From the IMG/VR virus record IMGVR_UViG_3300029288_003882, positions 1 to 64,000 of that record: a stretch of 64,000 nucleotides of DNA. One strand, written 5' to 3'. A program made the translations under genes and the position numbers. This DNA is from a virus. Taxonomy: Duplodnaviria; Caudoviricetes. Of the stretch, positions 546 through 63,526 are shown in pieces (within the stretch, counting starts at the first letter, position 1; each line of letters opens with the position of its first letter). Under the pieces are notes generated by a model. That model had not been told where the DNA came from. It searched no databases and worked only from the letters and a program-made list of their open reading frames with translations.

Positions 546-1063
546 ACCCAGTCGCCGTTTTCAAGGATATATATCAAGATTGCCTCTGCGAAGACATCGG
601 CGAAATGACATGCGCCAAAGAATACACCATAATTATCCGCCCGTTCAATTTCAACTTTGACGAATACATAACTAAGACAATGCAAGATTATATGGAACGG
701 ATATGTCCACCTGGAAATGATATGACCAAGGACATCGTTAATAGTATCGACGAAGTTCTAAAATCAGGAACTTTCCCGTATGCAAGACTAAACAAAACGG
801 TGATCACCGACAAGAAATTTTATACCGTTGTTCCTGAAAAGAAATATTTCTCATTTTCTGGTAGATACATCAACAACGCAAAGAAGATTTTGGGCGACGA
901 TTGCGAAATATTTTTACCCACTGTTTGTATCGTGGGTTATGCGCTTGCAAAGGATAAAAAATATATCGTGATGTTCTCGCCTGAAATCGGTGACGAACTT
1001 AATATTACCGAAGAAACAAAAGAGGAAAAGACCGACGATCTTGACGACAATAATTTATGGTGA
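542..1063 (+). CDS. hypothetical replication-operon protein
   Basis: ORF 527..1063; likely TTG start at 542 after GGAGG, overlapping upstream TGA; ends DDLDDNNLW. Confidence 0.7.
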   Translation: MNPVAVFKDIYQDCLCEDIGEMTCAKEYTIIIRPFNFNFDEYITKTMQDYMERICPPGNDMTKDIVNSIDEVLKSGTFPYARLNKTVITDKKFYTVVPEKKYFSFSGRYINNAKKILGDDCEIFLPTVCIVGYALAKDKKYIVMFSPEIGDELNITEETKEEKTDDLDDNNLW

Positions 1064-1067
1064 TTTT

Positions 1068-1349
1068 ATGCCATTTGCACAACAAAATCCAGAAGTCTAT
1101 AAGAAGATAAAGAACGAAAGATATGGCTACATTTGCCCGGAATGTGGCAACGTCGAAAAGTTCCAGCAATATATTAATTGCGTCAAGGATTTAATGCAAG
1201 ATGATAAGACAGGCAAAATCATATGGTATGGAAATGATACCGATATGAATTTGAAGCCTCATGTTACCGAAGTTCAATGCGCAGAATGTGGTGCAACGGC
1301 ACAAAAATGCAAGAAAGGAATTACTTTTGAGATGGAGTTCGTCATATGA
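1068..1349 (+). CDS. zinc-ribbon protein
   Basis: CPECG ... CAECG; GGTGA SD before ATG 1068. Confidence 0.75.
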   Translation: MPFAQQNPEVYKKIKNERYGYICPECGNVEKFQQYINCVKDLMQDDKTGKIIWYGNDTDMNLKPHVTEVQCAECGATAQKCKKGITFEMEFVI

Positions 1350-2149
1350 TAGAACAAAAAATAATTATTGGTGATTTCCTGGACGGGGGGGGCATTATTA
1401 AGGATAATAGTGTCGATCTAATTTTAACTGACCCACCGTATAATATATCCACAGAAATTACCATATTTCGTGGAAGCAACCCAATGAAGTTCAAAGGAAC
1501 GGATATTAAAGGTGATTTTGGTGAATGGGACCATTTTGAATCGGAGGAAAAATATATCGAATTCACTGAAGCATGGCTCGATCTATGTCATAAAAAATTA
1601 AGACCTGGTGGAATGTTCATATCATACTTTGACCGAGAAAGGATAAATTCTTTGTCGAATTATTTAAAAAAGAAATACAAATATAAATTTAAGGATTACT
1701 TTGCACATCTTAAAAATAATCCAGTACCGCAGGCAAGGATGGTAAAATGGATGTCTGCTTGGGAAATGGTTTGTATGTTGCAAAAACCAGAAGGTAAATT
1801 AACGTATAATTACAAATTGGGACAACAAAAGAATTATGCCATAGTATCTATCACAAGTCAAGGCGAAAGAATTGTTTCCGCGAAAGGGAAGACACATCCC
1901 ACGCAAAAGCCAGAATCGATAATCGAATTGTTCATTAAATATTGGTCGAACGAAGGTGATTTAATACTTGACCCATTCTGTGGGACAGGAACAACGTTAG
2001 CAATGGCGAAACGTTTAAGACGAAATGCCATCGGCTTCGAAATCGACGAAGACTGGAAGTACCCAGTTGAAAAGCGCATACAAGATACACACGAATCTGC
2101 AGAAGTCTATTTGCAAAATGATACACTTGACGAAGGTGAATTATTTTGA
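1346..2149 (+). CDS. DNA N4-cytosine/N6-adenine methyltransferase (beta class)
   Basis: LILTDPPY catalytic motif precedes DPFCGTGTT SAM-binding motif; HPTQKP motif. Confidence 0.93.
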   Translation: MIEQKIIIGDFLDGGGIIKDNSVDLILTDPPYNISTEITIFRGSNPMKFKGTDIKGDFGEWDHFESEEKYIEFTEAWLDLCHKKLRPGGMFISYFDRERINSLSNYLKKKYKYKFKDYFAHLKNNPVPQARMVKWMSAWEMVCMLQKPEGKLTYNYKLGQQKNYAIVSITSQGERIVSAKGKTHPTQKPESIIELFIKYWSNEGDLILDPFCGTGTTLAMAKRLRRNAIGFEIDEDWKYPVEKRIQDTHESAEVYLQNDTLDEGELF

Positions 2150-2301
2150 CCGAAGAAATCATAGATCACTATTGCACACGGTGTGGACGACGCTTGAAAA
2201 ATCCACAATTGATAAATGGAAAATATTACGGTGTCGTATGCGCCACAAAGATTGCAATATCAAACCATAGCCAGATCGGGACATTCGATGAGATGATTTA
2301 G
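2146..2301 (+). CDS. 51-aa zinc-finger microprotein (DUF6011-like), absent from ORF track
   Basis: Hand translation MTEEIIDHYCTRCGRRLKNPQLINGKYYGVVCATKIAISNHSQIGTFDEMI; TTG start 6 nt after GGTGA; fills the MTase-primase gap exactly. Confidence 0.65.
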   Translation: MTEEIIDHYCTRCGRRLKNPQLINGKYYGVVCATKIAISNHSQIGTFDEMI

Positions 2302-11226: not shown

Positions 11227-12367
11227 GTTCCGCTTCATACATTGCGCCGACTTGCACCTTGGATTTAAGCAATACAACGAAGACATCCGAGAAAAGGATT
11301 CTTATGATGCATTTGTAGGTATATTGGATTACGCCGTCGCAAATTCTATAAAGTTTATCTTGATTGCGGGCGATATTTTCCATAGCCGTGATATTTCACC
11401 AGAGACGTTATCTATCACCGAAAAGATATTGAACGAAGCACACAACCAAGGAATAATGTTTCTTGCAATCGAAGGCAACCACGATAGCCAACATATCATT
11501 GGTAAAATGTCGTGGCTTCAATACTTGCAAGTCAAAGGGCTTATTGCGCTTTTCGGAAAAGAGGACGGTCCTACATTTCTTGACTTAACATCACCGACGG
11601 GAAGATTATGCGTTTGGGGAATGAAATACGCAGGCGCATCCACAAAACAGGAACTGGATGCGTTCATCGATTACAAGAAAGACCAGATCGAACGTTTCCC
11701 AGAACAAATTGCCCGACCTGCCGTATTGATGATTCATGCAGGTGTTATGGGTCAAATCCCAAATTCTGGTAACATTGATGCATCCGATTTATTGCGCTTC
11801 AAAGCTTACTTTGATTATATCGCAATGGGACATATCCATAAACCGTATGAAATCGACAACTTCATATTTAATCCAGGTTCTTCAGAACATACGTCAATCG
11901 GTGAATCAGAATTTGAAGGCGGCTTTTACGACGTGGTGATCACCAATGAAAACGTGAACGCCAAGCACATAGTAACCAAAAAGCGACCAATGATAAGGAT
12001 TGAAAGCGATATTAACAAGATAGATTATCATTCGATAGTTAAACGCTTGCAAAACCTATCGGAGCCTATCGTTGAGTTCACTTTGGTAGGCGAATCACTG
12101 GAAAAGCCTGACATTAACGCAATACGCAAAGAACTGGAACACTTTTCGAAGATTCTAAGAATTCAAGATAAGACTTATCGACCAATGAAAATGGCGGAAA
12201 CGTTGCACGGTTCTACCGACGAAATTGAGAAAGCGGTGATAACGTCTTTGTCGAATTCGAACGATTTAACCCAACTCATAATCGACCTGAAAAATTCACC
12301 AACAGAAGATTCGGGCACAACGTTGAAAAGGTTCCAAAAACTGGCAGGTGTTGACGATGTTGATTAA
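11198..12367 (+). CDS. mre11: Mre11/SbcD metallophosphoesterase nuclease
   Basis: HCADLHLG, AGDIFH, EGNHD, MGHIH, NPGS motifs. Confidence 0.95.
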   Translation: MPKANKPKNEFRFIHCADLHLGFKQYNEDIREKDSYDAFVGILDYAVANSIKFILIAGDIFHSRDISPETLSITEKILNEAHNQGIMFLAIEGNHDSQHIIGKMSWLQYLQVKGLIALFGKEDGPTFLDLTSPTGRLCVWGMKYAGASTKQELDAFIDYKKDQIERFPEQIARPAVLMIHAGVMGQIPNSGNIDASDLLRFKAYFDYIAMGHIHKPYEIDNFIFNPGSSEHTSIGESEFEGGFYDVVITNENVNAKHIVTKKRPMIRIESDINKIDYHSIVKRLQNLSEPIVEFTLVGESLEKPDINAIRKELEHFSKILRIQDKTYRPMKMAETLHGSTDEIEKAVITSLSNSNDLTQLIIDLKNSPTEDSGTTLKRFQKLAGVDDVD

Positions 12368-14579: not shown

Positions 14580-16971
14580 TATACGTTGTAGGCTTCAATA
14601 CTTCGACGCTTGACAATGTAAATGCCATAGTCTTCTTGCGTTCGTATGTCCAAGCCAGTTCACGCAAGATAAAATTACCATAGGCGTTATATCGTGCCGA
14701 ATCGATTTCTACCGTTTGTCCTGGAAAATAATCGAAGCGATCTGGCACGAACTTAACAGTTATCTTCTTTGGTATCTCGTTGTGCGCTCTCACCCATCCA
14801 CGGGCGACTTGATAACAAGCATCGACACCGATGAGCGAGGTATCGGATATATTTTTGTGTCTTGGGTTATCTGGGAAATCAGGTATTGGATTATTCTCTG
14901 GGTCTAATTTTCCTGGATAGTATGCGCGGACACCATTTGCACCAACAACTGTTGCACAATCGAAATAATAGGAGCCATCTATTTCAACCGATAAATCGGT
15001 GATTTCGGCATCGGTTAATGTCACTGCTGGTTCCTGATTTTCATAATCTGGAAGGGGTGCAAATATCACACTATCATTTTTAACGTATATGTGGTAAATT
15101 GTCCCGTCGTCGTTGCCGCCGATGACAAGATATAATAATAATTTTATCGCCTCGAGTCTGGATTTATCTGTTAAATCGATTGAGTCAACTATGACGCCCG
15201 TCTCGATGTCGATACCGCCAGAATCGATGTCATGACCAGAATTTGAAATAATATCTTTGATGATTGCGCCCGCATCTGTGCCGGCATATTTTCCTTCATT
15301 TGGCGGAATGTGTTCGTTGTTCAATGCTTGCAAGACATCATAACAAGCGAACTGGACAGATTTAGGGGTGATCTTGGTCGTCAAAACATTTCCTTTAAAG
15401 ATTCTATCGTCGACCTCGGTTGGCGGGGTTAACTCTGTTTCAAAAGTCAAATCGTCGCCATATGGGTCTTCTACGGTATTGGTGATCACTGCGCGGAAAT
15501 GATAAACGGTCAAGTCATCGAGACCAGTTATTGTTTCTGATATTACATTTCCAACCCTTTTGCCAGTTCTATGTGTCGTTTCTGAACCATACGACAAAGT
15601 TTTACCATATTGGAAATAAACTTCGCAATCTTCGCCAGAATCTTCGGTTACTTCGGCGGAAATTGTTGCGTATGTATCGCCTACATCGGTTGCTGCTTGC
15701 GTTTCAATCGTCGGGCAAGGTTGCTCATCCGTCTTAAACGTCATATCAGAACCAGTAGTTGCGCCCTGATTGTTACTGATAGCCGCTTGGTAATGATATG
15801 TGGTATCTGGGTCCAATCCTGTCAACGCGGCGAAAGGAGTATTTCCAACTCTTTTGCCTGTTTGATGTGATGTTGAACTACCATATCCTACAGTTTTTCC
15901 ATAATTAAACCAAACTTCGCAATCTTCAGCGGAATCTTCCGTTACCTCTGAATTTACGGTTGCACCAAAATAACCAATATCTGTCGCTGCGTCTGTATCT
16001 ATTGCTGGTAATGGAGGTGTATCAAATTCACCGTCGGCGCCATATGTTGTGCCTTGGCTATTCATGATCACAGCACGGAAATGATATGTAGTATCTGGGT
16101 CAAGAGACGTTATATTTTCTGCTATTGTGTCAGGTATTCTCTTTTGTGTTTCGTGATTTGTTTCCGTTCCATAACCTGTATCAAGCCCATATTCCAACCA
16201 AACCTCACAATCTTCGCCACTATCGTCGATGACTGTGGCGTTTAATGTCGCTTGCGTCGATGTTATGGCGGAAGCTGGGTCGGTTTGAACAACGGGTGGC
16301 GCAGGAGGAAACCATTCACCTTCTTCTGCATATAATGAATCACATAACCAGGTTGTTGTCGGTAATTGTGACCAATCTGCAGGCGTGCCATACCAACAAT
16401 TGGCATCCGGATTAATATTTTTGTTATTGGCACCTAATACCGCTATATTTATTTCTGTGTCAACGACCGCAGTTATTTCATATGAAGCCAATAACGTTGT
16501 TCCTGCATCGTCATATACATAAACAGTTAATTTTTTGGATGTTCCATTATAACTCAATATCAATGTATACCATGTATTATCACTTAACGAATATCCCATG
16601 TCCTCGTCCTTATGATATATCCCATGTTGCGAATCGATACGAGCCCTTAGAGCACCAGTCCTATCTACTGATACTCCGAGAACATCAGCGTATAACCACG
16701 CTTCAAAAAATCCCAGAAAACCTATTGAATTGGCATGAGCATTAATAAGATTAGTTGGTGATCTTATATGCATAATACCGTGGAAGTCTTTTGTGAGGTC
16801 TTGTCCAGCAGAAAGAGATTGCCCAAATCTCTGACTGCTACCGGCACTTGTATAAAACGAAGTCCATAAATGTGCTCCACCATCAGTTGAATAATTCGCA
16901 CCGTAGGTAGTATTAGTGCCCACGACCGAATCTGATAATGCTGTTCCTGATTTATCGAGTAAAACTACCAT
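14569..16971 (-). CDS. tail baseplate hub/Tal-like protein with N-terminal lectin-like and three fibronectin-III-like domains
   Basis: Three ~93-aa repeats, then IFKGNV...FACYD, GAIIKDII, FPGQTVEI hub-like pattern; located downstream of tape measure. Confidence 0.7.
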   Translation of the reverse strand: MVVLLDKSGTALSDSVVGTNTTYGANYSTDGGAHLWTSFYTSAGSSQRFGQSLSAGQDLTKDFHGIMHIRSPTNLINAHANSIGFLGFFEAWLYADVLGVSVDRTGALRARIDSQHGIYHKDEDMGYSLSDNTWYTLILSYNGTSKKLTVYVYDDAGTTLLASYEITAVVDTEINIAVLGANNKNINPDANCWYGTPADWSQLPTTTWLCDSLYAEEGEWFPPAPPVVQTDPASAITSTQATLNATVIDDSGEDCEVWLEYGLDTGYGTETNHETQKRIPDTIAENITSLDPDTTYHFRAVIMNSQGTTYGADGEFDTPPLPAIDTDAATDIGYFGATVNSEVTEDSAEDCEVWFNYGKTVGYGSSTSHQTGKRVGNTPFAALTGLDPDTTYHYQAAISNNQGATTGSDMTFKTDEQPCPTIETQAATDVGDTYATISAEVTEDSGEDCEVYFQYGKTLSYGSETTHRTGKRVGNVISETITGLDDLTVYHFRAVITNTVEDPYGDDLTFETELTPPTEVDDRIFKGNVLTTKITPKSVQFACYDVLQALNNEHIPPNEGKYAGTDAGAIIKDIISNSGHDIDSGGIDIETGVIVDSIDLTDKSRLEAIKLLLYLVIGGNDDGTIYHIYVKNDSVIFAPLPDYENQEPAVTLTDAEITDLSVEIDGSYYFDCATVVGANGVRAYYPGKLDPENNPIPDFPDNPRHKNISDTSLIGVDACYQVARGWVRAHNEIPKKITVKFVPDRFDYFPGQTVEIDSARYNAYGNFILRELAWTYERKKTMAFTLSSVEVLKPTTYIKP
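15436..16296 (-). repeat. three tandem FN3-like coding repeats
   Basis: aa ~226-512 repeat EDS.EDCEV.F.YG.T..YG..T.H.T.KR.G...L..DT.YH..A.I.N. Confidence 0.9.
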
Positions 16972-17165: not shown

Positions 17166-19263
17166 TCTTGTATTGAATCACTGCTGTCCACGGAACGTCA
17201 TCGATATATCCACCACGTCTTGAGTGGTTGAAAGATAAAATATAGCCAGTGAATTCTTTGGTGGCTCCGGTGACATCGAAGTAATTAAATCTTACAAGCG
17301 TTTGCCCAATGACATAACCTTCCATCAAGGTTATATCTGCTTCTGTCATATGCGCCTGTCCAGCAATCTTGAGAACTTTGTTCATCGTTCCCAAGCCTTC
17401 GACATCTGGATATCCTCCACCAATATTTTGAGTGATCTGGTAATCGGACTTTAAATCGACATCTACCTGTCTGGGATGTCTATTGAAGGAAATGGTGGTC
17501 GCAGTCAACAAGTCCAAAATTTTAATCTTCATAAGTATTTTGTCGCTGGCTTCGTTTAAATCGTCTTTAACTGTTAGACCTACGACGAAGATTCCCGCCC
17601 CACTGTATGTATGTTGTGCATACGGTGAAGTTTGCCAGGCTTCGGGTGTTCCGTCGCCATAATCGAAACGATAGCCATTTCCTGAAGCGATATATCCATT
17701 ATCATCGACATCATACGAATCATTACCGAAAAACGATAATGTAGAAATGCCTGCCCCAGACAATCTTGATACAAGAGGCTTAACCCACAATCGAGCAACT
17801 GGTGCAGAATTCTGGGCATTTACTTCAATCGTATTAGACCATCCGCTTACGGCGCCATTACTATACTTAACTTTTACCTTTGCATCGAAGACGCCGCTTA
17901 ATTCATTTTGGGAATGTTTGTTATAAACGTGATTGACAACGTTATGAGTAATCCATCCAGAATTCAACCCGTCCCCAAAATCGAACCAATAATGGGTGAC
18001 AGTTACGTCTGGGTCCTCTGGTTCCACAGAAGTTGCGTCGAACGTCAAGCGATAACCAGTTTTGGTAACGATTGGGGTTATTATGTCGTCGTTGTATGTA
18101 TTTTCAGTTACCGCCAACGATACTTCGCCCCCAGTCACGAAGTAAGTTACCTTTAAGTCCTGAAGTATCGGGCTATCGTATCCTTCTTCATTTCTAAATT
18201 TGATAAGCAAAGATATACTGGATTCAGTGATGTCGTGGATATCGATTTCCGCCGCGGTCAAGTCTTCATAGCCAGCAATCGGCACACCGACACTATTAAG
18301 GACGGTCGTTGTTATCATCTTGCGATTAGGGATAGATTCACCAGATTTAACCAACGTTATCTTGTCCCATTGATACCAATTTGACGGGGCTATATTGATT
18401 GTTTCGAATTCTTGTTGGTGATCTGGATATTGTATTTCGTCGTCGTTTTGATTTAAGAAGGTTTCAAGTCTTTGGCTATCCATGTAAACGGTATGGACGC
18501 CAACGCCGCCTGTAAATAAGATTTCAAGACAGACAGGTCCGTCGAAGTCTTCAAAGATTGGTGATATATCAGACGTTTCTTCCTCGGATGTGCTTTCTTT
18601 CAATACGTGATAAAGTATCCTGTCGCCTGATTTTTCTATTGTCATTTTTACCCATTCGCCTTGTGGCGTCTTCGCTAATGTCGGCATTGCAATTTCGGAA
18701 TCAATCGCAATACCATTACCGTCAGGAACAACCTTGAAAAATTGTCCAGAACTCGTGCCGATGTATGCGTATGGAAGACTTGCATAGCCAGTGGCGAAAT
18801 CGTCAGTCGCCCGTTGAAATGCATAAAATCCTACATCGACATCCCCGGCAATAATGGTTGCATCTATAAGAAGATAGAACGAAGCCTTCCAATCGTTCCA
18901 CCCCCCGACGCATAACCCAGCTCCTGAAACGTAATACTTGAACACAGCAACTGGTCCGCCGTTGGTGATCACCTTCGCAGCTTTGTTTCGACCTACTGGA
19001 AAAGTGGGTGTGTCTGATGTTATTGAAGACGAGCCACCAAGAACTATTGCAGAATAAAATGTATTTATTTCAGCGTCAGAGACCATTAAGCATTCTTGCG
19101 CCAGTTTATTTGCTTTTATCAAACCTTCGGCGGTATATTGTAGTATGCGCTTATCAGTGCTCGGCTTTATCTTCGTCGTATCGTGAAAGTCATCCTCCCA
19201 AGTCATCACCAATTTATACCACCTCGTAATCGCCACGTATGATTGCGGAATGTAGTTCTTCAA
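17158..19263 (-). CDS. distal-tail-like protein with lectin-like and two PKD domains
   Basis: YWFDFGDG and YRFDYGDG...HTYSGAGIFVVGLTV PKD motifs; C-terminal Dit-like LKIAG...FTGYILSF; true start likely near 19206. Confidence 0.65.
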   Translation of the reverse strand: MKNYIPQSYVAITRWYKLVMTWEDDFHDTTKIKPSTDKRILQYTAEGLIKANKLAQECLMVSDAEINTFYSAIVLGGSSSITSDTPTFPVGRNKAAKVITNGGPVAVFKYYVSGAGLCVGGWNDWKASFYLLIDATIIAGDVDVGFYAFQRATDDFATGYASLPYAYIGTSSGQFFKVVPDGNGIAIDSEIAMPTLAKTPQGEWVKMTIEKSGDRILYHVLKESTSEEETSDISPIFEDFDGPVCLEILFTGGVGVHTVYMDSQRLETFLNQNDDEIQYPDHQQEFETINIAPSNWYQWDKITLVKSGESIPNRKMITTTVLNSVGVPIAGYEDLTAAEIDIHDITESSISLLIKFRNEEGYDSPILQDLKVTYFVTGGEVSLAVTENTYNDDIITPIVTKTGYRLTFDATSVEPEDPDVTVTHYWFDFGDGLNSGWITHNVVNHVYNKHSQNELSGVFDAKVKVKYSNGAVSGWSNTIEVNAQNSAPVARLWVKPLVSRLSGAGISTLSFFGNDSYDVDDNGYIASGNGYRFDYGDGTPEAWQTSPYAQHTYSGAGIFVVGLTVKDDLNEASDKILMKIKILDLLTATTISFNRHPRQVDVDLKSDYQITQNIGGGYPDVEGLGTMNKVLKIAGQAHMTEADITLMEGYVIGQTLVRFNYFDVTGATKEFTGYILSFNHSRRGGYIDDVPWTAVIQYKSV

Positions 19264-23543: not shown

Positions 23544-24209
23544 TTACTTGGAGGCTTGCTTGCGTCTTTGCAACGCGGCATACTCGGGTGAGGATTTCAA
23601 TGCACCTTCTACCTGTTCCCGAGGCATGTTCCCCTTTATGTATGAAACATAGCATTGAAGACCGCCCGCATCGGGTTCCCTTTCAAGAATCTTCCAATAT
23701 GCCTTGCGGACGAATTGTTCTGGCGTCGATTCAGGCAAAGTTCGCCAATCGATCTTGGGCTTCGGAACGGCAGGCTTTGGCGGCGCTTGCACAGGCTTCG
23801 GCGCTTGCACGGGTGCGGGTGCGACCGCTGGTGTGGGTGCGCGGACGGGAGCGGGAGGGGTCACGGGCGCTGTTTTTGGTGCAGGTGCGGGAACGGGCTT
23901 GGGGGTGATCACCGGCATCGGCGGAGGCGTCGATGACTTCAATATCGGAGGAATCGGCTTCGGAGGTTCTGGCGCTTTTACAGGCGCAGGAGGGACAATG
24001 GGTGCGGGTGTGGGTTCGAGTTGCTTTTGTGCATCAAGAACCGCTTGGCGCAGGTATTTCAAAGTGTTCGATGGATACTTTGTCATGTCGACCTTAGCAC
24101 CGCGCTTCTCTAAGTCTTCGACGATTTCAAGAAGTTTGGCTCTCTTTGTCAAGTTCGCAAGGTCTTTCTCGGTATAAATCTTAGGTTGCTTGTCAATCAT
24201 TTTAACCAC
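23544..24209 (-). CDS. HeH-like N-terminus + Pro/Ala-rich linker + DUF4214-like C-terminal domain
   Basis: PEQFVRKAYWKILEREPDAGGLQCYV...REQVEGALKSSPEY matches DUF4214 pattern; ~90-aa PA-rich linker. Confidence 0.7.
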   Translation of the reverse strand: MVKMIDKQPKIYTEKDLANLTKRAKLLEIVEDLEKRGAKVDMTKYPSNTLKYLRQAVLDAQKQLEPTPAPIVPPAPVKAPEPPKPIPPILKSSTPPPMPVITPKPVPAPAPKTAPVTPPAPVRAPTPAVAPAPVQAPKPVQAPPKPAVPKPKIDWRTLPESTPEQFVRKAYWKILEREPDAGGLQCYVSYIKGNMPREQVEGALKSSPEYAALQRRKQASK

Positions 24210-28143: not shown

Positions 28144-29390
28144 TTTTTCACCTCCATACGTTCGTTAGCCGCCTTTCGCAAGATAAAGTTGGCTTCGTTT
28201 GCTATGTCGTCCCACCCAAAGTTCTTCTTTGCAAATCTGAAGGCTGCCTCTCCCATTTTCCGCGTTTCGCTTCTGTTGTCGTATGCATACTGGAAGGCTT
28301 TTGCCATTTCGTCAACGTCAACAATAGCCCTCCGTATGTTGTATTCGCCCATGACGTAATCATTAGGTGGGATTAAAAAGCCTCTATCGTCGCCTACAAG
28401 TTCGGCGCTCGATGTATAATCGGTGATCACCGCAGGCGTGCCACAAGCCATCGCCTCCACAGTTGGTATTCCGAAGCCTTCGCCACTTGTCGATGACGCA
28501 TAAACATCAAACAAATTATAGAAAGCCGCCAATTGTGAAACGAGAATACCGTCATCGAGTTTATCCGTTTGGTCGATGAACAATACCTTTCCTTGTTCGA
28601 TCTTCTTTTGCTTGATGTATTCGTATAGGTTATTTCCTTGCATTGTTCTATTTGCGGGGTCGCCAACTTTCATAAGCATAACGGCGTCTTTCTTATCCTT
28701 GGCGAATTTGGCAAAAGCATCTATTACTTTTGTATGTTGCTTTCTCATACAATTCTTGCCTATGACACCCACGCAAAACGTATCTGGGTTTTTCTTAAAG
28801 AAGTTTTGGCGATTTTCTTCTCTAAGATTTCTTGCCAGAGGTTTGAAAGTATCCAGATCAACGCCGTGGTATAGATGTGGCATTCCGAAATGTCTTGTCC
28901 ATCCACCTCGACCAAAATCCATAACCGCTTTCGTGACCACATCACGTCCATATTTTGACATTGCGAGAGGTGTATGCGTCTTTTTTATCATATCAAGCCA
29001 CGGTGTATAGAACGGGTCACCATCGACGGGGAAATAGTTCACGTAAGGAACGCCTGCCTCATTACAATAGTCTATCAATCCCTCCGTAAACCAATAATCG
29101 ATTAGTGAAAATGCACAATCGGGTTTAAACGTCTTCAAATAATGCGGGAACTTTTCTGGGAAGGCAGGGTCGAGCATCGACGTTAGCCCGTGGTTCAATT
29201 GAAGATATATCCCACCTTTTCCGTCGCCGTATTCTTGCGGCATTCCGTTGTGTTGCCAACCGACGTGATAACATTTCCAGCCACGTTTCGCAAGACGTGG
29301 TAAAAGATTTGCCATAACGACGCCATATCCCGTTGGCATAAGTGTCGATTCGCTTCCCGATAATAGAGTTAATATTTCTTTGTTCGACAT
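28140..29390 (-). CDS. GT4 glycosyltransferase
   Basis: PTGYG, HGVD, EGFGIPTVEAMACGTP; start taken as ATG 29390 downstream of TATA box. Confidence 0.92.
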   Translation of the reverse strand: MSNKEILTLLSGSESTLMPTGYGVVMANLLPRLAKRGWKCYHVGWQHNGMPQEYGDGKGGIYLQLNHGLTSMLDPAFPEKFPHYLKTFKPDCAFSLIDYWFTEGLIDYCNEAGVPYVNYFPVDGDPFYTPWLDMIKKTHTPLAMSKYGRDVVTKAVMDFGRGGWTRHFGMPHLYHGVDLDTFKPLARNLREENRQNFFKKNPDTFCVGVIGKNCMRKQHTKVIDAFAKFAKDKKDAVMLMKVGDPANRTMQGNNLYEYIKQKKIEQGKVLFIDQTDKLDDGILVSQLAAFYNLFDVYASSTSGEGFGIPTVEAMACGTPAVITDYTSSAELVGDDRGFLIPPNDYVMGEYNIRRAIVDVDEMAKAFQYAYDNRSETRKMGEAAFRFAKKNFGWDDIANEANFILRKAANERMEVKK

Positions 29391-29419
29391 AACAATCAAT
29401 CTTTGAAGCGAATTATTAT

Positions 29420-32251: not shown

Positions 32252-32536
32252 TTACGGTGGCGGCGGTGGTACAGGAGGTATAATAGCAACGATTATACCG
32301 TTTGCAACCATTACCGTATTTCCTTGAGCGTCTTCAAATTGTCCCGTAAACCCACTAACCGCTGGTGTTAAAATTGTTTCAGTTCCTTTGGTGATCACCC
32401 TTATAGTTCCTGTTGACGAATGAACATAAACGAGACGATTAGCCAATCTTGATATGTATCCTTGTTTCTTTGCGTAAGCCATCGCCGCAGATAGATTTGG
32501 TTGTTCGCCCAACCAATTTAAGTTTTCAATAGCCAT
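32252..32536 (-). CDS. hypothetical virion protein
   Basis: GAGG SD; C-terminal PPVPPPPP; within structural operon. Confidence 0.6.
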   Translation of the reverse strand: MAIENLNWLGEQPNLSAAMAYAKKQGYISRLANRLVYVHSSTGTIRVITKGTETILTPAVSGFTGQFEDAQGNTVMVANGIIVAIIPPVPPPPP

Positions 32537-32544
32537 ATTTCGCC

Positions 32545-37262: not shown

Positions 37263-37268
37263 CGGTGA

Positions 37269-37598
37269 TCACCACAAAATAGTTATCTCAAGGTCAACGT
37301 CGCCGTCCACACCTTTGTAAGCAATGCATCGAACTTTTTGCGTTCTGGATTGTGATGCGCCAGGACGTATCAACCTCGATGCCGTATCGCTTACATCGCC
37401 GGATAATACGTTGACATCGATACGTGCCGATTTGCTTGCAGGGTCTAACGGGTCTTCGGCATTAGCGATTTCTACAGCTTCCGCGGCAACGCCTATTACC
37501 CCTTTCGTCGCACCGAAATCAGAAAGCCACAATCGATTGGTAACGCCGTTGCTTGCGGTGACATGTATCGTCTTTGAATTTTCTGGTGATTCTTTCAT
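37269..37598 (-). CDS. putative head/virion structural protein
   Basis: 109 aa directly downstream of capsid gene. Confidence 0.55.
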   Translation of the reverse strand: MKESPENSKTIHVTASNGVTNRLWLSDFGATKGVIGVAAEAVEIANAEDPLDPASKSARIDVNVLSGDVSDTASRLIRPGASQSRTQKVRCIAYKGVDGDVDLEITILW

Positions 37599-44682: not shown

Positions 44683-44687
44683 TATTG

Positions 44688-45029
44688 ATGCCCAAAGACG
44701 TATCGACAAAAGAAACGATAATAAACTGGATGAAACGCTTGAAAGGGATACAACTAATGGACGAATTCACCATACACAATTTGGATATCGATTTCCAAGA
44801 ACTTGACCAAGAGACAATAGACTACTTGCATGAATGTGCAATCAATCAAAGGCAACGACGTCCCGCATCTTGCGAAGACGGGCAATGCCCCGTATCGGGC
44901 AAGAGTGACTTATGCAAGTTCCGTTCCTTATATTTCGGATGTAATGATTGCAACATATACAAAGGCAAGAAACATCTTTTAATCGATAACGTTGGTGATC
45001 ACCAAAAGAAGCGACGACACAAATCTTAA
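44688..45029 (+). CDS. Cys-rich hypothetical protein
   Basis: AGGTGA SD; C..GQCP....CKF....GCNDC. Confidence 0.6.
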   Translation: MPKDVSTKETIINWMKRLKGIQLMDEFTIHNLDIDFQELDQETIDYLHECAINQRQRRPASCEDGQCPVSGKSDLCKFRSLYFGCNDCNIYKGKKHLLIDNVGDHQKKRRHKS

Positions 45030-48948: not shown

Positions 48949-49687
48949 CGACGATCTTCCGCGGGCGCTTGAATTCTTCTGAATTATAATCCCATTTGCT
49001 TGATATATTCGAACCGTGGTGCCAATAGTATTGTATCGGCGTATCTATGAACTTTATTTTATAATTCTCAGACAGGTTCAACCAGAAATCCCACATAAAG
49101 TTCCGATGCACATCGTCCCGAATCTTCCAGTCCTTGATTTCTTTCCACGCTTTCGTTCTTACCAAAGAATTATCGATGACGCAACATGTCTCGAGTAAAA
49201 AGGCAGGGTCAACATAATAACCCTCATTCGCCCGTATGAAGCGTTTTAATGCCTGTGCGGTGATCACCGAATCGAGAGCGGTGAAGTTCTTGTCTGCATT
49301 GATGAAATTACCATAAGCGGCGCCTATTTCTTCGTTTTCTTCAAGCGCATTAAACTCTACCAGTAGTTTATTTGGGAACCAGAATTCGTCGGCTCCGCAG
49401 AAGCAAACATACTTGGTAGGATTTATTTTTAGAATATCGAGACCTTGTTGCAAGCCCGCTCTTGGAATACCTTCTTTATTCCATACTTCGATGCGTGAAT
49501 ATTCGGCACTATATTCGTGGCATATCCTTTTGCATAAATCGGGGTCGTCGCCTGCGTCATCGACGACGATAACCCTTTTGGGCAAAATAAGACCACATTC
49601 GATGGTCCGAAGCATCGTTGGCAACATTAATTCATAATTTCGGCAAGCGATTATTACCGTTATGTCCTCTGTTCTTTGTAATGGCAT
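48914..49687 (-). CDS. glycosyltransferase family 2
   Basis: ITVIIACRN, IVVDDA, GADEFW, DFWLNL. Confidence 0.85.
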   Translation of the reverse strand: MPLQRTEDITVIIACRNYELMLPTMLRTIECGLILPKRVIVVDDAGDDPDLCKRICHEYSAEYSRIEVWNKEGIPRAGLQQGLDILKINPTKYVCFCGADEFWFPNKLLVEFNALEENEEIGAAYGNFINADKNFTALDSVITAQALKRFIRANEGYYVDPAFLLETCCVIDNSLVRTKAWKEIKDWKIRDDVHRNFMWDFWLNLSENYKIKFIDTPIQYYWHHGSNISSKWDYNSEEFKRPRKIVVDDAKRRRGIA

Positions 49688-50793: not shown

Positions 50794-52212
50794 CTATTCG
50801 TCGATGATCTTGTTTAGACGTTGCAGGAATCTTCTCAAACCATACTCGAATCTTGTTTTTACCTTTGCGTCTTCGTCGATGTCGCCCGAGTATCCTTTCT
50901 TCATATCTTGAATGCACATTATTATATGGTCGACCTCGTTTAGGCAATTGACATACTCGACGCATTCATCCATCTTATGATTCCAGATCACCTGTTTTCC
51001 TGCGCTCAAGTATTCGAGAACACTTATCGACAATCCGTCCGTATGCGTCAATCTTAGCAACGTTGAGACCTGTGGCATAATCGTCTTCATATCCGACCAC
51101 ATTCCTCCGAGATACGTTGCGTTCGGGTGTTCTACTTTTGAAAAGTTCGCAACATCTACTGGTAGACCGTAGATTAAAAATTTAACTTTCGGACAACCAG
51201 ATATAATCGCATGTAATTTATCCGTTGGACAAATGTTATCATTTCGAATATAAATTCCTACAGTGAATTCGTCTGGCATCGGTGCGTCAAAGAATCTAAA
51301 GGTGTTTGGCAAGATATGAATATCCTTGAAGCCTAATTTTATCAAGCGTTCTTCCATTGCCGAATATTCGCATATCACCCGAGGCGTCATAGGATATTCC
51401 TTGATATTATATTTACCTTCCTCGAGGTAACGAACTTCGGTGCCTGTGAAATAATAATACGGTGTGCATTTGATATTATTTTCACGGAGGGTTTTAAAGA
51501 TGTATCTAACTGGATAATCCACTGGCGGCCAGATTAGAACTTTTGAGTGTTGTTTCAATAGACGAACGGCGTCCAGATCATAACGTTTCGCCAACATCCC
51601 AGTCATTCTACCCATATCTTCGGCAAAGCCGTCGCACCACGAGTATGAGATTAAAATATTGTTCTTCGTGAAAGTATAAACGTGGCACGGACTTGCCACC
51701 TCGAGGTCATCATACAAGCGCCATCCAAATTTCTTGAACAATGCAACGTAATCATGCATAAAGCAATGCTCGTCTGTCTTTTCACATCCTACTGGTTCGG
51801 TGATCACCGCGAATTTAAATAATTCGGTGATTTGCTTGATAACGACCTCAATATTTAGGTCGTTGACATGTTCGAGAACGGTATTGCAAAAGAACAAATC
51901 GAACTGGTTAGGTTTTAGAAATCTTTTCATGTTCGTTAAGGAATCTACTCTAACTGGCACGTTTGGATATCTGTTCTTGCATTCTTGCGCCAACTCGGAC
52001 GATAGTTCTATGCCCATCAATTTCTTTCCTGCGAAGATTCTAAAATAATCTCCGACACCGCATCCTCCATCGATGACAGTGTTAAACTTGATTTGTTGCA
52101 AGATGCCCGCAAGAAGATCACCATGAGCGATGATAGATTCAGATATTTCCTTTGGGTGTTTTGCAATATATTCCTTCGCTCGGTTTTCCCAATATTCTTT
52201 ATCTTGATACAT
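50794..52212 (-). CDS. SAM methyltransferase fused to GT-B-like domain
   Basis: N-term IDGGCGVG, GIELS, TVLEHV; C-term LRLTHTDGLSISVLEYLSAGKQVI. Confidence 0.78.
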   Translation of the reverse strand: MYQDKEYWENRAKEYIAKHPKEISESIIAHGDLLAGILQQIKFNTVIDGGCGVGDYFRIFAGKKLMGIELSSELAQECKNRYPNVPVRVDSLTNMKRFLKPNQFDLFFCNTVLEHVNDLNIEVVIKQITELFKFAVITEPVGCEKTDEHCFMHDYVALFKKFGWRLYDDLEVASPCHVYTFTKNNILISYSWCDGFAEDMGRMTGMLAKRYDLDAVRLLKQHSKVLIWPPVDYPVRYIFKTLRENNIKCTPYYYFTGTEVRYLEEGKYNIKEYPMTPRVICEYSAMEERLIKLGFKDIHILPNTFRFFDAPMPDEFTVGIYIRNDNICPTDKLHAIISGCPKVKFLIYGLPVDVANFSKVEHPNATYLGGMWSDMKTIMPQVSTLLRLTHTDGLSISVLEYLSAGKQVIWNHKMDECVEYVNCLNEVDHIIMCIQDMKKGYSGDIDEDAKVKTRFEYGLRRFLQRLNKIIDE

Positions 52213-54836: not shown

Positions 54837-55069
54837 CAAAATCCCAATAGTCTTAAATAAACGTGCCACGGACAACCTTCTTCTGCATAAGCGCATACAA
54901 CAGATGGCGACACCGTTCCATCTGGGGAAATTGTATGATCATCTATCGTCTCGATTTTGTTGCAACAACCACACCTAACAACGGTAGACTTTTTACCGTA
55001 TGCATTTGTCCAATAAGTCCATTCGCCCACATCTGGGAACTTTTTATCGGTCTTTTTTAATTCTATCAT
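54836..55069 (-). CDS. small Cys/His metal-binding protein
   Basis: CGCC...HTISPDGTVSPSVVC....CPWH. Confidence 0.62.
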   Translation of the reverse strand: MIELKKTDKKFPDVGEWTYWTNAYGKKSTVVRCGCCNKIETIDDHTISPDGTVSPSVVCAYAEEGCPWHVYLRLLGF

Positions 55070-55301
55070 AACATATCCCCATGAGCGTCTTCGTATCGAC
55101 AATGCCATCTATCGTTCGTATGTTATCTATCACGATTTGCTGAAGTTCTTGCATATCTTTGGCGGTGATCTTGGCAAGAAAGTCAAATTCTGAAAATATA
55201 GGATAACATTCATCAATTTTATTTTCTGATTTTAACGCATTGAAGACGAAATATTCCTTTTCCGTTTTCACCTTTATCAAGACGAACCCAATAACTGTCA
55301 T
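55044..55301 (-). CDS. stand-alone Lrp/AsnC ligand-binding (RAM) domain
   Basis: GFVLIKV...V...L.....ECYPIFSEFDFLAKI....L..IV...IRTIDGIVDTKTL; no HTH. Confidence 0.88.
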   Translation of the reverse strand: MTVIGFVLIKVKTEKEYFVFNALKSENKIDECYPIFSEFDFLAKITAKDMQELQQIVIDNIRTIDGIVDTKTLMGICYDRIKKDR

Positions 55302-56591: not shown

Positions 56592-57815
56592 GTGATCAAC
56601 GAAGCAACGATAAAGGAAGCCGTTGCAAGCGACCCGACGCAAGAAATAACTGAAGGTGGAAACGTCGTAGGCGAAAACTGGAACCTCCGCGTTAATGCAT
56701 TCGTCGAAGCACATGGCAAGATCGTCGGGTCCATAGTTTACAACTACCTCTCGGATGATGAAATATACAACAAAGGAAAAGCCGCAATCGAGCACGGAAT
56801 GATTGCAGGTACCGATATGTATATCGGCGTAATCCAAGAATACGCAAAACAGGGATATTTCCACTGCATGATATGTGGGGCGCATATACATCACCACTAT
56901 TGGGCGAAGATGAACGACGGGAAATATGGTGCAATCGGCTCCGAATGCATCGACGTAATAACGGGCACAACGATAGGCGAACTTGCCCAAGTAGCCGCTG
57001 GAAAGGCAATACGTGATACGCTTGCAAGAAGGAAAGCCTCGGCGGTCAAAAGGGAATTTGTCAGGTATTATAATGCGCTTGATGACGACGAAAAGAACCA
57101 CGTATTTGTCATAAGCGACGGGATAAACAGGTCTTGCCCATACATCACCGAATCACAATACAAGAAGACGAAAGAAACATACCACTTCCGCGAAAGGGCG
57201 AAATTCAACGAAACGAACATAATAGAATTCTGCAAAGAACATTCCAAATGCTCGGAATTCATGTCGTCTTGCGTCGAACACCCAACTTTTGGAAGAATCG
57301 AAGCGGTTAAAAATTGCGGATGCAAGACCTGTGGAACGAAGTTCAAAGCCCCAAAGTTCGAAGCAAAACCACCCGAACATTTCAACGTATGCGATTGGCT
57401 GGTTGCAAGACCAATAAACTTCAAGGATATCAAGATAGTTCAAGAAGTTGCCGAAATGAAGAAATGCGGAACGCCTTGCGCTTGCATACAAGAAATCACC
57501 TGCGAAAAACACATGAAGTGGATTGCCGATTGCATAATCGGAAGCGATAAGTCTACCACGTGGAAATTCAAAAGCGCAATAAACGATATAAAAGTCCTGA
57601 TTGAAATCGGATACTTAATGCCTGACTTTGGCAAGGTCGAACCTGACCCAATGAGTGATGACGAAGTAAAAACGCTTAATGCAAAGGTCAACAAGGAAAT
57701 AGAACGTGCAACGAAGATGGCGGACAAGATGAAAGCCGACTTTGAGGCAAAGAAGCAAAAAGAAGAAATCGAAAAGAAAAATTATGAAGCAAAGTTTAAG
57801 ACAGGAGGGAATTAA
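56592..57815 (+). CDS. large Cys/His-rich early protein
   Basis: CMICG..IHHHY..G.IGSECI; further C..C motifs; GGAGG SD before GTG 56592. Confidence 0.7.
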   Translation: MINEATIKEAVASDPTQEITEGGNVVGENWNLRVNAFVEAHGKIVGSIVYNYLSDDEIYNKGKAAIEHGMIAGTDMYIGVIQEYAKQGYFHCMICGAHIHHHYWAKMNDGKYGAIGSECIDVITGTTIGELAQVAAGKAIRDTLARRKASAVKREFVRYYNALDDDEKNHVFVISDGINRSCPYITESQYKKTKETYHFRERAKFNETNIIEFCKEHSKCSEFMSSCVEHPTFGRIEAVKNCGCKTCGTKFKAPKFEAKPPEHFNVCDWLVARPINFKDIKIVQEVAEMKKCGTPCACIQEITCEKHMKWIADCIIGSDKSTTWKFKSAINDIKVLIEIGYLMPDFGKVEPDPMSDDEVKTLNAKVNKEIERATKMADKMKADFEAKKQKEEIEKKNYEAKFKTGGN

Positions 57816-57816
57816 A

Positions 57817-58266
57817 ATGGACGGTAGAATGAAACAATCTTTGGACAAACACATAACTGGAAATTATGGCGAGGACCAATATCCTGAAGAGAAAGAAGAT
57901 TGCAACCCCAAAGAATATATCAGATGCCTGCAATGCAACGAAGCAATGCCACGAAGCGAATTTCTCGAACATTTCAGGACGAAGCATGAAGCGGTGATCA
58001 CCGACTTCTTGAATGACTTTCTAAGGGAAGCCGAAGAACTTGCGACGAAAGAGAACGAAACGTGCATACATCAAGGTATAGAAAAGGACGAAAAGGGGAA
58101 GACGCATTGCAAGATAACTAACACCCCATGCACATGGTCAAGCGTTCCCAAGGACTGCCCGAAAGAAGCGAAAGATTACACTAAGAAGTATAGACTTAAT
58201 GGGCATCTTCGTTCCTGCGATTGTGGCGAATGCTTCGATTGTGATGCCGATAACGACGAACTATAA
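57817..58266 (+). CDS. C2H2-type zinc-finger protein
   Basis: CLQC........HFRTKH; GGAGG SD. Confidence 0.7.
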   Translation: MDGRMKQSLDKHITGNYGEDQYPEEKEDCNPKEYIRCLQCNEAMPRSEFLEHFRTKHEAVITDFLNDFLREAEELATKENETCIHQGIEKDEKGKTHCKITNTPCTWSSVPKDCPKEAKDYTKKYRLNGHLRSCDCGECFDCDADNDEL

Positions 58267-58518: not shown

Positions 58519-58528
58519 GGAAGATCAC

Positions 58529-59288: not shown

Positions 59289-59290
59289 AT

Positions 59291-61267: not shown

Positions 61268-61473
61268 TCTTTCACCTTCAGGTGTTTTAGGTGCCAGTTG
61301 GAAGCTGCGACAAGAGTTTTTCCGCCGGTTATGGCACCCATATTTCGCAACGTGTTAATGTTTGAGGACAGGGCAGGGTAGGAAATTCCGGTCGCTTTCA
61401 AGATTTCTGGTCGTGAAACGGGTCCAGAATTGCGGATATACTCGTAGACTATTAACGATGTTAGCGGGCGCAT
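61264..61473 (-). CDS. winged-helix transcription regulator
   Basis: YEYIRNSGPVSRPEILKATGISYPALSSNINTL..MG.I. Confidence 0.8.
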   Translation of the reverse strand: MRPLTSLIVYEYIRNSGPVSRPEILKATGISYPALSSNINTLRNMGAITGGKTLVAASNWHLKHLKVKE

Positions 61474-61497
61474 AAAGTGAAATCGTTTTAGGATTAT

Positions 61498-62688
61498 TTA
61501 AAAGATTGCGTCGTATACTGTCATGAAGCCCCAAAGATTCTTATTGTGTTCGGAGGTCAAGTTGAAGGACGGTATCTTATCGGCGTATCGCTTATAGAAT
61601 TTAGAGGCAAGGAAAGAGGAGGTGATACGGGAGGTTTCGACATCGCCAAGGTCGATTGTATATTTATGGAGGACGGGAGGGGTAATGTCGAAAAGGGATG
61701 GGTCAAGATGTCGAACGATTGTCTCACGGACAAGGTCGGCATATTTGCCAATTTTTAGGAAAGAATCGTTGCACTCGGCAACGACGGAAAGGTAGGCGTA
61801 GGATGTGAATGGGTAAATAACGTCTTGAAATTGATTATACCACTGGGCAGTCCATTCACCTTTGAGTGGGCAATATTGGAGCCAGCGATTGATGGGAATG
61901 TTATCACAATAATGGAAGTTTTTGTAGTTGGGATAATTGCGGGATGGATAATCGAATATTTCACCGCCGTAGGAACCGGAGATTACGGTATAATCACGTT
62001 CAAGATGGTATGGGACAAGATCACGCCAGAAATTCATCTGACCAAACCACGTATAGAAGCCGTTTAGAGGGCGATCTTTATGACCGAGGTCATATGGGTT
62101 TAAGGAAGGCATTGGAAAGGTGGAATAGAATGAAGGAGACCAACCTTGTTTTTCCATTATCAGGTTAAAAAGTTTTTCTTCTGGCTCGTGGCATCGGAAA
62201 TGGATATGAGGTAAATCTTTCTTGAATTTACGAAGCATCAAAGAATTAATGCGTGAGTCATACCCACTGGAATGAAATACGAGGTAATGGTTTTTAGACG
62301 AAAGAACAAAACTGAAAAAACGGTCTAAGGCACCTATTAGTTCGTCGCAATAGTCATCTAATGAATTAACGGTGGGTGTCTTATCTTGCAAGATGTGGAG
62401 GTGGGAGGGAGAGGTCAGGAGGATTTTCTCGGCAGGCGAAGCGAGACGGATTTCTCGGAAGGGCGTTTCGATATAGTTGCGTCGCTTATAGTTGGGATTC
62501 AGGTAATGTTCGTCGAAGGTCAAGGAAGGGAGGGAACGAGCGACATCAAGGATATTGGTGGACGCCTTGTCATTGTCACCGATAAAGATGATGGACGGAT
62601 AGCAAAGAGGGAAGGAAGCGGACTTTTTACCTATAAAGCGCATAAAGTGGGAATGTGGGTTTGGAAATTTATACTTTATGCTCATCAA
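61498..62688 (-). CDS. asparagine-synthetase-like ATP pyrophosphatase (PP-loop) domain protein
   Basis: HSSGYDSR PP-loop and VISGSYGGEIF; no clear N-terminal Ntn glutaminase Cys. Confidence 0.65.
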   Translation of the reverse strand: MMSIKYKFPNPHSHFMRFIGKKSASFPLCYPSIIFIGDNDKASTNILDVARSLPSLTFDEHYLNPNYKRRNYIETPFREIRLASPAEKILLTSPSHLHILQDKTPTVNSLDDYCDELIGALDRFFSFVLSSKNHYLVFHSSGYDSRINSLMLRKFKKDLPHIHFRCHEPEEKLFNLIMEKQGWSPSFYSTFPMPSLNPYDLGHKDRPLNGFYTWFGQMNFWRDLVPYHLERDYTVISGSYGGEIFDYPSRNYPNYKNFHYCDNIPINRWLQYCPLKGEWTAQWYNQFQDVIYPFTSYAYLSVVAECNDSFLKIGKYADLVRETIVRHLDPSLFDITPPVLHKYTIDLGDVETSRITSSFLASKFYKRYADKIPSFNLTSEHNKNLWGFMTVYDAIF

Positions 62689-63178
62689 CGTAATGGGATA
62701 ATCCGTGGAAGTCTGTGTGACCCAAATTTTCAGGTAAATTAATGGTGCGGGAATCTTCCATCATACGACGGATATAGGAATGTCGGAGGACGTGGATGTG
62801 CCTCTTTTCTTTGGGTAAGTTTAAAGAGATTGCAATGTCGGTATAGATACGTTGCATTTGCCGTTTAGACATACGGTCAGATTTGTTGGAAGAAATTAAA
62901 GGACTTTTCGGGTCTTTACCAGATATATGATGGGATAAAATACGTTTCAATGATCTGGAATAAATGGGTATTGTCCGACCTTCAGGATGGTATTTTGAGG
63001 AAGAAACACGAATATCGGAACAATCTGGTGATATGTCTTCAACGTTGAGTGCAGATATTTCACCCACTCGCATACCAGTATCGATTGCAAGACGTAAGAT
63101 CAAATGGTCACGGTGATGTTTGGCACTATCAAGAACTTGGTTAAGTTGTTCATCGGTTAAGGCGTTCATAGATGACAT
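62669..63178 (-). CDS. tyrosine recombinase catalytic domain
   Basis: RD.LIL.LAIDTGMRVGEI..L..EDI, HVLRHS, LGH......HY; lacks N-terminal core-binding domain. Confidence 0.85.
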   Translation of the reverse strand: MSSMNALTDEQLNQVLDSAKHHRDHLILRLAIDTGMRVGEISALNVEDISPDCSDIRVSSSKYHPEGRTIPIYSRSLKRILSHHISGKDPKSPLISSNKSDRMSKRQMQRIYTDIAISLNLPKEKRHIHVLRHSYIRRMMEDSRTINLPENLGHTDFHGLSHYVDEHKV

Positions 63179-63526
63179 TATTATTCTGATAAGTATATAA
63201 CAGTTTTGGATTTTGGTAACCTGCTGGAACTTTCCGGAAAATGGAAGAGTTATCAGTTTTCTGGTTTTTGGGAAGAGAAATGCATCTCACATTCCCATCT
63301 TCCACGGCCGACCGCCACAGGAAAAAAGAATTCTTTTTGGGAAAATTTCCGCCGCCGACGGGTGATCACCGTGTCGTCGTTGTTGTCGTTGTGCTTAGAG
63401 TGTCATCACATCTGTTATTTAGTGTCATAAGGATGACGTTATATTTATATACAGGCTTCCTTAAGAACACCAACACACAACAAAGATAACATTATAATAA
63501 AAAGAATATATCGACCTTGTTGTAGG

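Follow-up and report, generated by a model that had tools for sequence, protein, structure and literature searches.

Evenly spaced, invariant copies of a 10-bp palindrome in the genome of a probable archaeal tailed virus: a predicted array of binding sites for a dimeric protein

What keeps a dozen identical copies of one 10-bp palindrome along the genome of a single virus? The question is raised by the word GGTGATCACC in the stretch of DNA investigated here, 64,000 nucleotides of a tailed virus (IMG/VR record IMGVR_UViG_3300029288_003882, positions 1 to 64,000), referred to as the window. The window covers positions 1 to 64,000 of contig C9 (83,912 bp), one of 21 contigs in an assembly. The last 498 bases of C9 repeat the first 498 at 98.6% identity. 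Thus, C9 is a complete genome of about 83.4 kb, circular or terminally redundant, and it was assembled from a slightly heterogeneous population.

For the window, twelve copies of GGTGATCACC were listed in the initial annotation, and an exact match was found at every one of the twelve coordinates. A thirteenth copy lies beyond the window at C9:74666, and the density on C9 amounts to 156 copies per Mb or about one per 6.4 kb. In 100 dinucleotide-preserving shuffles the mean was 0.05 copies with a maximum of one; Markov models of order 0 to 3 predict 0.05-0.07. Among the palindromic 10-mers on C9, GGTGATCACC is the commonest. The sole word with a higher score, CGGTGATCAC (16, both strands counted), is a one-base-shifted extension of it. 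All ten positions are invariant across the 13 copies. The extension to palindromes of 12-14 bp, given earlier for six copies, is real, but the recount yields seven of the twelve copies in the window and eight of the 13 overall. Six of these read CGGTGATCACCG, and one (44994) reaches 14 bp. The flanks follow the pattern Y-GGTGATCACC-R (Y, pyrimidine; R, purine) in 22 of 26 half-sites, and the shared flank ends there. Near-copies had been claimed as well, for instance at 15481; nine copies with one mismatch were detected, this one included, and they differ mostly by transitions.

Eleven of the 13 copies are situated within genes, at relative positions from 0.14 to 0.92 with none favoured. A codon-aware null, under which the enrichment was said to be at risk of vanishing, was run on the 117 called genes, which cover 92% of C9. 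Synonymous codons were shuffled within each gene, so that every protein and the codon usage of each gene were preserved. The enrichment holds: within genes 12 copies were seen and 0.19 expected (z 28). For the whole of C9, 1000 such shuffles gave a mean of 1.17 copies and a maximum of 4, mostly the non-coding copies that are not shuffled. Ten of the 13 copies, including those at 32390, 49259 and 57993, read G GTG ATC ACC and encode Val-Ile-Thr (VIT). They fall in ten unrelated proteins, among them an Mre11-like protein, a PKD tail protein, a DUF4214 protein, GT4 and GT2 glycosyltransferases, a methyltransferase-domain protein and a SIS-domain heptose isomerase. The remaining three are one GGT GAT CAC, one junction of a stop codon with a ribosome-binding site, and one non-coding copy. 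This recheck of the frames (10, 1 and 2 copies) agrees with the earlier description of mostly VIT-coded copies, one GGT GAT CAC and two boundary or intergenic sites.

GTG ATC ACC encodes 11 of the 22 VIT tripeptides of C9, whereas codon usage predicts 1.5%. Furthermore, the 22 tripeptides compare with 7.9 in residue shuffles (2.8-fold; maximum 19 in 2000 shuffles). Since VIT is over-used beyond this expectation, some copies come at the price of altered amino acids. The GT4 glycosyltransferase shares the peptide PxVITDYT with a 55%-identical orthologue (on locus L013), where VIT is coded GTT ATT ACA. The array is a DNA-level signal, with selection acting on DNA rather than on protein. The proposal of a genome-wide signal was correct to this extent, as the copies run across the whole viral genome and against codon usage. 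Chance, a compositional or codon-pair effect, or an assembly artefact is barely credible as the origin of the array. It could be argued that the array is known from a single genome which came from a metagenome bin. However, none of the 100 dinucleotide and none of the 1000 codon shuffles reached the observed count, and the copies stand in frame inside conserved proteins, such as at the glycosyltransferase motif. A repeated or inserted element was rejected as well, because the flanks share no similarity and the encoded peptide is orthologous in the relative.

The half-site GGTGATC was found 60 times on both strands together, four-fold above the synonymous shuffles (14.8 ± 2.9), and it tops the enriched 6-, 7- and 8-mers of C9. 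Within genes the enrichment is strand-symmetric, with 26 sense copies (4.9 expected) and 29 antisense copies (4.8 expected). These numbers bear on an explanation at the RNA level, by which GGUGAUC would pair with the 3' end of 16S rRNA (GAUCACC) and cause an internal ribosome pause, or the whole word would act as a self-complementary mRNA contact. GGTGA(T) is the ribosome-binding motif before many C9 genes, all copies lie in transcribed DNA, and the frame is near constant (10 of 11 coding copies). The copy at 37264 even serves as such a motif. On the minus strand it gives the TGA stop of gene 37269-37598 and also the GGTGATC ribosome-binding site 4 nt ahead of the ATG of gene 36873-37262. On the other hand, pairing with 16S rRNA needs GGUGAUC alone, and the palindromic ACC extension would not pair. 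The bias in frame follows from a TGA stop in one frame and from the rarity of Gly-Asp-His. A placement as Shine-Dalgarno sequence, directly before an annotated start, was found for one of the 13 copies (37264), and an ATG 4-8 nt downstream of the word in 4 of 26 orientations, with about 2 expected. Non-palindromic half-sites are equally enriched in antisense and sense, no position within genes is preferred, and regularity of spacing is seen when it is measured along the DNA in kilobases rather than by genes. The Shine-Dalgarno-like pause site suggested in the initial annotation is therefore unlikely, and we consider an explanation by RNA improbable in general.

On the 83.4-kb circle the 13 gaps measure 2.5-11.3 kb with a coefficient of variation (CV) of 0.42, compared with a mean of 0.90 for randomly placed sites. 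The P values of this evenness are 0.001 (CV), 0.002 (smallest gap, 2540 bp) and 0.005 (largest gap, 11.3 kb). In a conditional test, 10 of the 22 VIT slots were drawn at random and the three other copies were held fixed. Spacing as even as observed was obtained in 0.7% of the draws (P 0.007). All VIT tripeptides free of the motif lie within 2.8 kb of a perfect copy, except the one at 15481, which is itself a one-mismatch copy. Eight of the nine near-copies are found in the five largest gaps, but as gap fillers they are not significant in conditional tests (P 0.10-0.17). Synthetic watermarking, a thought prompted by the even spacing and the synonymous recoding, is implausible for a metagenome contig with decayed copies and half-sites.

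C9 carries genes for a large terminase of lambda type, for capsid protein and protease of HK97 type, and for tail tube and tail proteins. A second group of genes encodes a family B polymerase, RFC-like clamp loader subunits, a primase, Mre11 and Rad50, as well as a nuclease similar to XPF and a helicase similar to XPD. Enzymes of sugar modification are numerous, and a TnpB-like transposase and a tyrosine recombinase of short length are present as well. At the start of operons, a TTTATATA-type (TATA) box stands about 27-30 nt ahead of the start codon of a leaderless first gene, while genes inside operons are preceded by GGTGA(T) at a distance of 5-8 nt. The best alignment of the polymerase was obtained with polymerases of haloarchaeal tailed viruses. 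Other contigs of the assembly are bacterial, with SecA on C1 (E 5e-123) and DnaE- and AcrB-like reading frames. Because the expression signals of C9 are archaeal and the rest of the assembly is bacterial, C9 is most likely an archaeal tailed virus that was mis-binned with a bacterium. In the initial annotation GGTGATC had been noted as the complement of the archaeal 16S 3' end; C9 is a viral element with expression signals of archaeal type, and GGTGAT is the ribosome-binding motif of its own genes.

The other 20 contigs (2.73 Mb) contain no copy of GGTGATCACC, which says nothing on the host because these contigs are bacterial. In 40 relatives of the co-binned bacterium only 0-13 copies per genome were counted. 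For 301 genomes of Thermoplasmatota the density was at most about 15 per Mb, compared with 156 per Mb on C9. A HIP1-like motif spread through the host, as once envisaged, is thus found neither in the co-binned bacterium nor in these archaea. As a clue to the host, a 20-mer with a GGCC site from next to the recombinase gene was compared with reference genomes; the two matches, in GC-rich bacteria, are due to chance, and the Atlas taxa for the heptose kinase are bacterial and of no help on the host.

The array is specific to this lineage and absent from the sampled relatives. The closest terminases share about 50% identity and come from short contigs, on which neither a copy of GGTGATCACC nor an excess of half-sites was observed. 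An alignment-based scan of IMG/VR covered 80 related viral loci (914 kb) and gave 0 copies. Four complete relatives of about 81 kb show no iterated array of a 10-bp palindrome, only clustered palindromes with three copies; the half-site GGTGATC is missing in three of these four and in a fifth complete relative. Closer relatives were found neither by megablast against phages nor by scans with single proteins, and in the bacterial order one weak match (E 1.2e-4, 27% identity) is no credible relative. Conservation at synonymous sites in relatives, by which the signal was to be judged, gave 0 copies, in a comparison that is unfair as the nearest share about 50% protein identity. Because the relatives are too distant, their lack of copies speaks neither for nor against purifying selection.

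Some words other than the palindrome are common in these viruses. AATCTTTG / ATCTTTGA rank with the commonest 8-mers both of C9 (30 copies) and of two relatives with about 50% identity (10 and 6 copies; loci L012 and L013); their abundance may be a shared codon-pair or peptide habit. The relatives of about 81 kb carry 20-30 copies of non-palindromic 10-mers, for example CTGTAGGTCC.

Short palindromes are otherwise purged from C9. Counts observed on C9 were compared with the expectation from synonymous shuffles. Among 4-bp words, CTAG (0 observed, 64 expected), GGCC (9, 114), AGCT (26, 135), GTAC (52, 164) and CCGG (54, 155) are rare, and CGCG is avoided too. Longer words are affected as well: GGATC/GATCC (3, 104), AGTCG (24, 127), GAGATC (0, 31) and GGAGA (28, 125), with one AGATCT and no CGATCG. 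This avoidance points to a range of hosts with many restriction systems of types II and IIS. GGTGATCACC behaves in the opposite way to an avoided restriction-modification target, being enriched more than 60-fold. Thirteen copies of a 10-12-bp palindrome are all the more striking in a genome that purges short ones.

Avoidance also differs between the relatives of about 81 kb. G530, G531, G533 and G534 (loci L215-L234) each lack their own set of 4-bp palindromes, for example GATC with 0 against 464; AGCT, CTAG, GTAC and ACGT are further words at 0 among them. On C9, the palindrome CGAATTCG has 10 copies where an order-3 Markov model gives 1.8, and GAATTC itself is common there (60 copies).

The avoided words allow for the array as a by-product of restriction. 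In this view GATC or TGATCA would survive only next to a GGTGA flank, through which an overlapping GGTGA-type adenine methylase could modify the A of GATC, and the surviving sites would accumulate in this context. The strong avoidance of GGATC, GAGATC, AGATCT and CGATCG is in accordance with this, and the flank of GATC is GGT in 60 of 338 cases. TGATCA (27 copies) is not depleted overall, and 16 of the 27 lie inside GTGATCAC; outside of it, about 11 remain where 23 are expected, about two-fold too few. GATC itself is common, with 169 copies (306 expected) of which 156 lie outside YGGTGATCACCR, and its apparent depletion is accounted for by the longer avoided words. Moreover, such an exemption restores at most the neutral level of about 0.2 copies, not 12-13, and it cannot create extra VIT tripeptides or even spacing. 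An origin as by-product of restriction is very improbable.

In our view the chances are about evenly balanced that the (Y)GGTGATCACC(R) copies represent an array of predicted binding sites for a putative dimeric DNA-binding protein. The 13 copies would be high-affinity recognition sites on double-stranded viral DNA. The candidate reader would be a sequence-specific homodimer, most likely encoded by the virus itself. Sites would be placed by selection, which recodes existing Val-Ile-Thr tripeptides and creates new ones, and selection would keep them about 6.4 kb apart, with one site per stretch of the genome. The spacing along the genome fits a job that is done along the whole chromosome. Candidate jobs are a 'self' mark on viral DNA, the loading of a sliding or spreading factor, compaction or segregation, and genome-wide transcriptional roadblocks in a temperate virus. 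Binding of a protein, and what it is for, we infer from the pattern of the sites: a dimeric reader of a tiled array would account at once for the dyad and its invariance, for the symmetry between the strands, for the spacing and for the restriction to one lineage. A narrower and more tentative proposal is that of a virus-specific 'self' tag, by which a viral protein would read the spaced 12-bp palindromes and tell viral from host DNA. Such a tag might be used for protection from a viral nuclease, for selective compaction or packaging, or for loading a Rad50/SMC-like or sliding factor.

Several observations weigh against a dimeric reader. The reader protein was not found; most of the about 117 predicted proteins match no family. 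The search for ParB_N (PF02195) in the whole assembly gave matches on C5 and C14 only and none on C9, and structure prediction, with a predicted local distance difference test (pLDDT) of 34, was unusable for finding a reader. The array occurs in one genome only and is lacking in the relatives. Sites of 10-12 bp without spacer are small for a helix-turn-helix dimer of the classical kind and resemble those of enzymes more closely. Finally, a simple dimer model fails to explain a second enriched 10-mer, GGTGATCTGG / CCAGATCACC, which is not palindromic. It has 9 copies (0.4 expected) in several frames and both orientations, at 18417, 40101, 42510, 50983, 56113 and 59336 of the window and at 3615, 4186 and 17471 of L009 (C9:64001-83912). 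Four of the nine copies extend to GGTGATCTGGTC. This word consists of the enriched half-site joined to another enriched flank, CCAGATC.

Searches of Pfam, PHROGs and NCBIfam with about 90 of the predicted proteins revealed no helix-turn-helix, ribbon-helix-helix or ParB domain, nor any other recognizable domain for sequence-specific DNA binding. What they yielded were weak zinc ribbons and a stand-alone Lrp/AsnC ligand-binding domain (55044-55301). For two proteins adjoining the recombinase gene, the Atlas look-up and the AlphaFold model gave no information. The Lrp/AsnC (RAM) product is an 85-aa protein (E 7e-13) without DNA-binding domain and might partner a Lrp-type regulator of the host.

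Alternatively, the word could be the recognition site of an enzyme, be it a methylase, another base modifier, or a nickase or endonuclease of replication, recombination or packaging; the combination of a HIP1-like methylase with biased repair is included here. An unspaced 10-12-bp dyad with GATC core and ten invariant positions is typical of type II sites, and the one-mismatch copies are mainly transitions. In addition, enzymes are present among the viral proteins, namely a DNA methylase, Mre11-Rad50, a nuclease similar to XPF, and several further domains of methyltransferase and glycosyltransferase type. The sole recognizable DNA methylase (1346-2149), however, appears from its sequence to be a beta-class N6/N4 enzyme nearest to CcrM (6pbd, E 5e-26) and to HpyAVI/DpnA-like enzymes. 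CcrM acts on GANTC and HpyAVI-type enzymes on GAGG. GGTGATCACC contains no GANTC, and the proposal of this methylase as the cognate enzyme gains no support. Repair drive predicts no control of spacing, yet the spacing is controlled, and it should convert most slots, yet 11 of the 22 VIT tripeptides are unconverted. Host-wide enrichment was found in none of the genomes searched, and cleavage by a nuclease at all 13 sites would break the genome into pieces. We therefore consider an enzyme site rather unlikely.

In the literature the exact word GGTGATCACC turns up only in primers and in unrelated contexts. To our knowledge, dispersed identical palindromes have been described for few phages and plasmids, and their reader and purpose are understood only in cases with a ParB/KorB-type protein. 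HIP1 (GCGATCGC) is a palindrome with GATC core distributed over cyanobacterial chromosomes at about one copy per kb; it is common to related genomes and has cognate methylases. The array resembles it in the GATC core and in the occurrence in coding DNA against codon expectation. In contrast to HIP1, GGTGATCACC is confined to one viral genome, with one evenly spaced copy per 6.4 kb and no recognizable matching methylase. Among the dispersed repressor sites of temperate phages, the stoperators of Cluster A mycobacteriophages are present in many copies and are bound by the immunity repressor to block transcription; they are asymmetric, mostly intergenic and oriented with transcription. C9 shares with these phages the many copies of one short site, spread over a viral genome of temperate type, and it also carries a tyrosine recombinase gene. 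Unlike stoperators, GGTGATCACC is symmetric, and 11 of the 13 copies are inside genes. Polar signals such as Chi and KOPS differ from it too, since GGTGATCACC is palindromic and its half-sites have no strand bias (26 and 29).

Cluster O mycobacteriophages contain more than 30 invariant 17-bp dyad repeats, TGTTCGG-N3-CCGAACA, to which neither a reader nor a function is assigned (PMC4351075). In Corndog the 34 copies amount to about one per 2 kb, and many are intergenic or near 5' ends (PMC4351075). The repeat has a 3-bp spacer and is common to all five genomes of the cluster (PMC4351075). As on C9, an invariant inverted repeat runs along the genome of a tailed virus of similar size, with some copies in genes. 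The array of C9 differs in having 13 spacer-free copies, almost all deep in genes, in a virus of archaeal type, and in the lack of the word in the sampled relatives (the nearest at about 50% terminase identity). For the IncP plasmid RK2, KorB, a ParB-family clamp operated by cytidine triphosphate (CTP), reads the OB operators, is loaded there and exerts its effect at a distance as global regulator and partition factor (PMC11790492). OB is a 16-bp site upstream of promoters (PMC11790492). A dispersed palindromic site on a mobile replicon is common to both systems. ParB/KorB-type arrays consist of dispersed palindromes of 13-16 bp, and the array of C9 agrees with this as an invariant 10-bp dyad (12 bp for eight of the 13 copies) spread over the whole circle. 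A protein with a ParB_N domain, which belongs to such arrays on the same replicon, is not encoded on C9. By the features tested, the array is outside the ParB/KorB, stoperator, Chi and HIP1 classes.

The copies in the window and the near-copy at 15481 are listed in Table 1.

Table 1 Copies of GGTGATCACC in the window and one near-copy (VIT, Val-Ile-Thr; GDH, Gly-Asp-His)
Feature	Position	Reading	Gene or region (strand)	Palindrome or remark
Copy 1	799..808	VIT	178-aa gene 527-1063 (+)	12 bp
Copy 2	11935..11944	VIT	Mre11-like phosphoesterase gene 11198-12367 (+)	12 bp, TGGTGATCACCA
Copy 3	18964..18973	VIT	PKD-domain tail/fibre gene 17158-19263 (-)	
Copy 4	23904..23913	VIT	DUF4214 gene 23544-24209 (-)	
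Copy 5	28422..28431	VIT	GT4 glycosyltransferase gene 28140-29456 (-)	
Copy 6	32390..32399	VIT (I-R-V-I-T-K)	small gene ~32252-32537 (-)	
Copy 7	37264..37273		junction of two head-module genes, 37269-37598 and 36873-37262 (minus strand)	
Copy 8	44994..45003	GGT GAT CAC (GDH), sole such copy	near 3' end of 44616-45029 (+)	14 bp
Copy 9	49259..49268	VIT	GT2 glycosyltransferase gene 48914-49717 (-)	
Copy 10	51799..51808	VIT	472-aa methyltransferase-domain gene 50794-52212 (-)	
Copy 11	57993..58002	VIT	174-aa gene 57742-58266 (+)	
Copy 12	63361..63370		350-bp non-coding stretch 63179-63526, downstream of TATATAAATA box	
Near-copy	15481..15490	GGTGATCACT (antisense AGTGATCACC, coded VIT)		in 7-kb gap between copies 2 and 3

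Copy 12 is located about 185 nt upstream of the gene for the 169-aa tyrosine recombinase (62669-63178, minus strand; Phage_integrase). This gene has a promoter of leaderless type, and the 350-bp non-coding stretch ahead of it has a TATA box of its own. The stretch also holds the 16-bp palindrome AAAAAGAATTCTTTTT and one of the nine GGCC sites. The region 62669-63526 could be an attachment or control region. Outside the window, 1 kb without called gene at C9:79391-80394 (15391-16394 of L009) contains a GGCC site, a half-site and a one-mismatch copy of the motif; it could be a replication origin or a region of non-coding RNA. The gene of the TnpB/IS605-type transposase (30636-31856; phrog_506, E 9e-69), which has its own TATA box, is embedded in the tail and glycosylation module but runs on the other strand.

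For the binning of metagenomes, C9 is a warning of probable mis-binning of a virus in a bacterial genome bin. For the search of a reader it is a clean case: 13 identical sites, largely at synonymous positions, are spaced as though they tiled the chromosome, and one 12-bp probe faces about 117 candidate proteins. If the 'self' tag were true, no archaeal virus would have been described with a genome-marking system of this kind before. The finding of the reader would show how an archaeal virus organizes or marks its chromosome.

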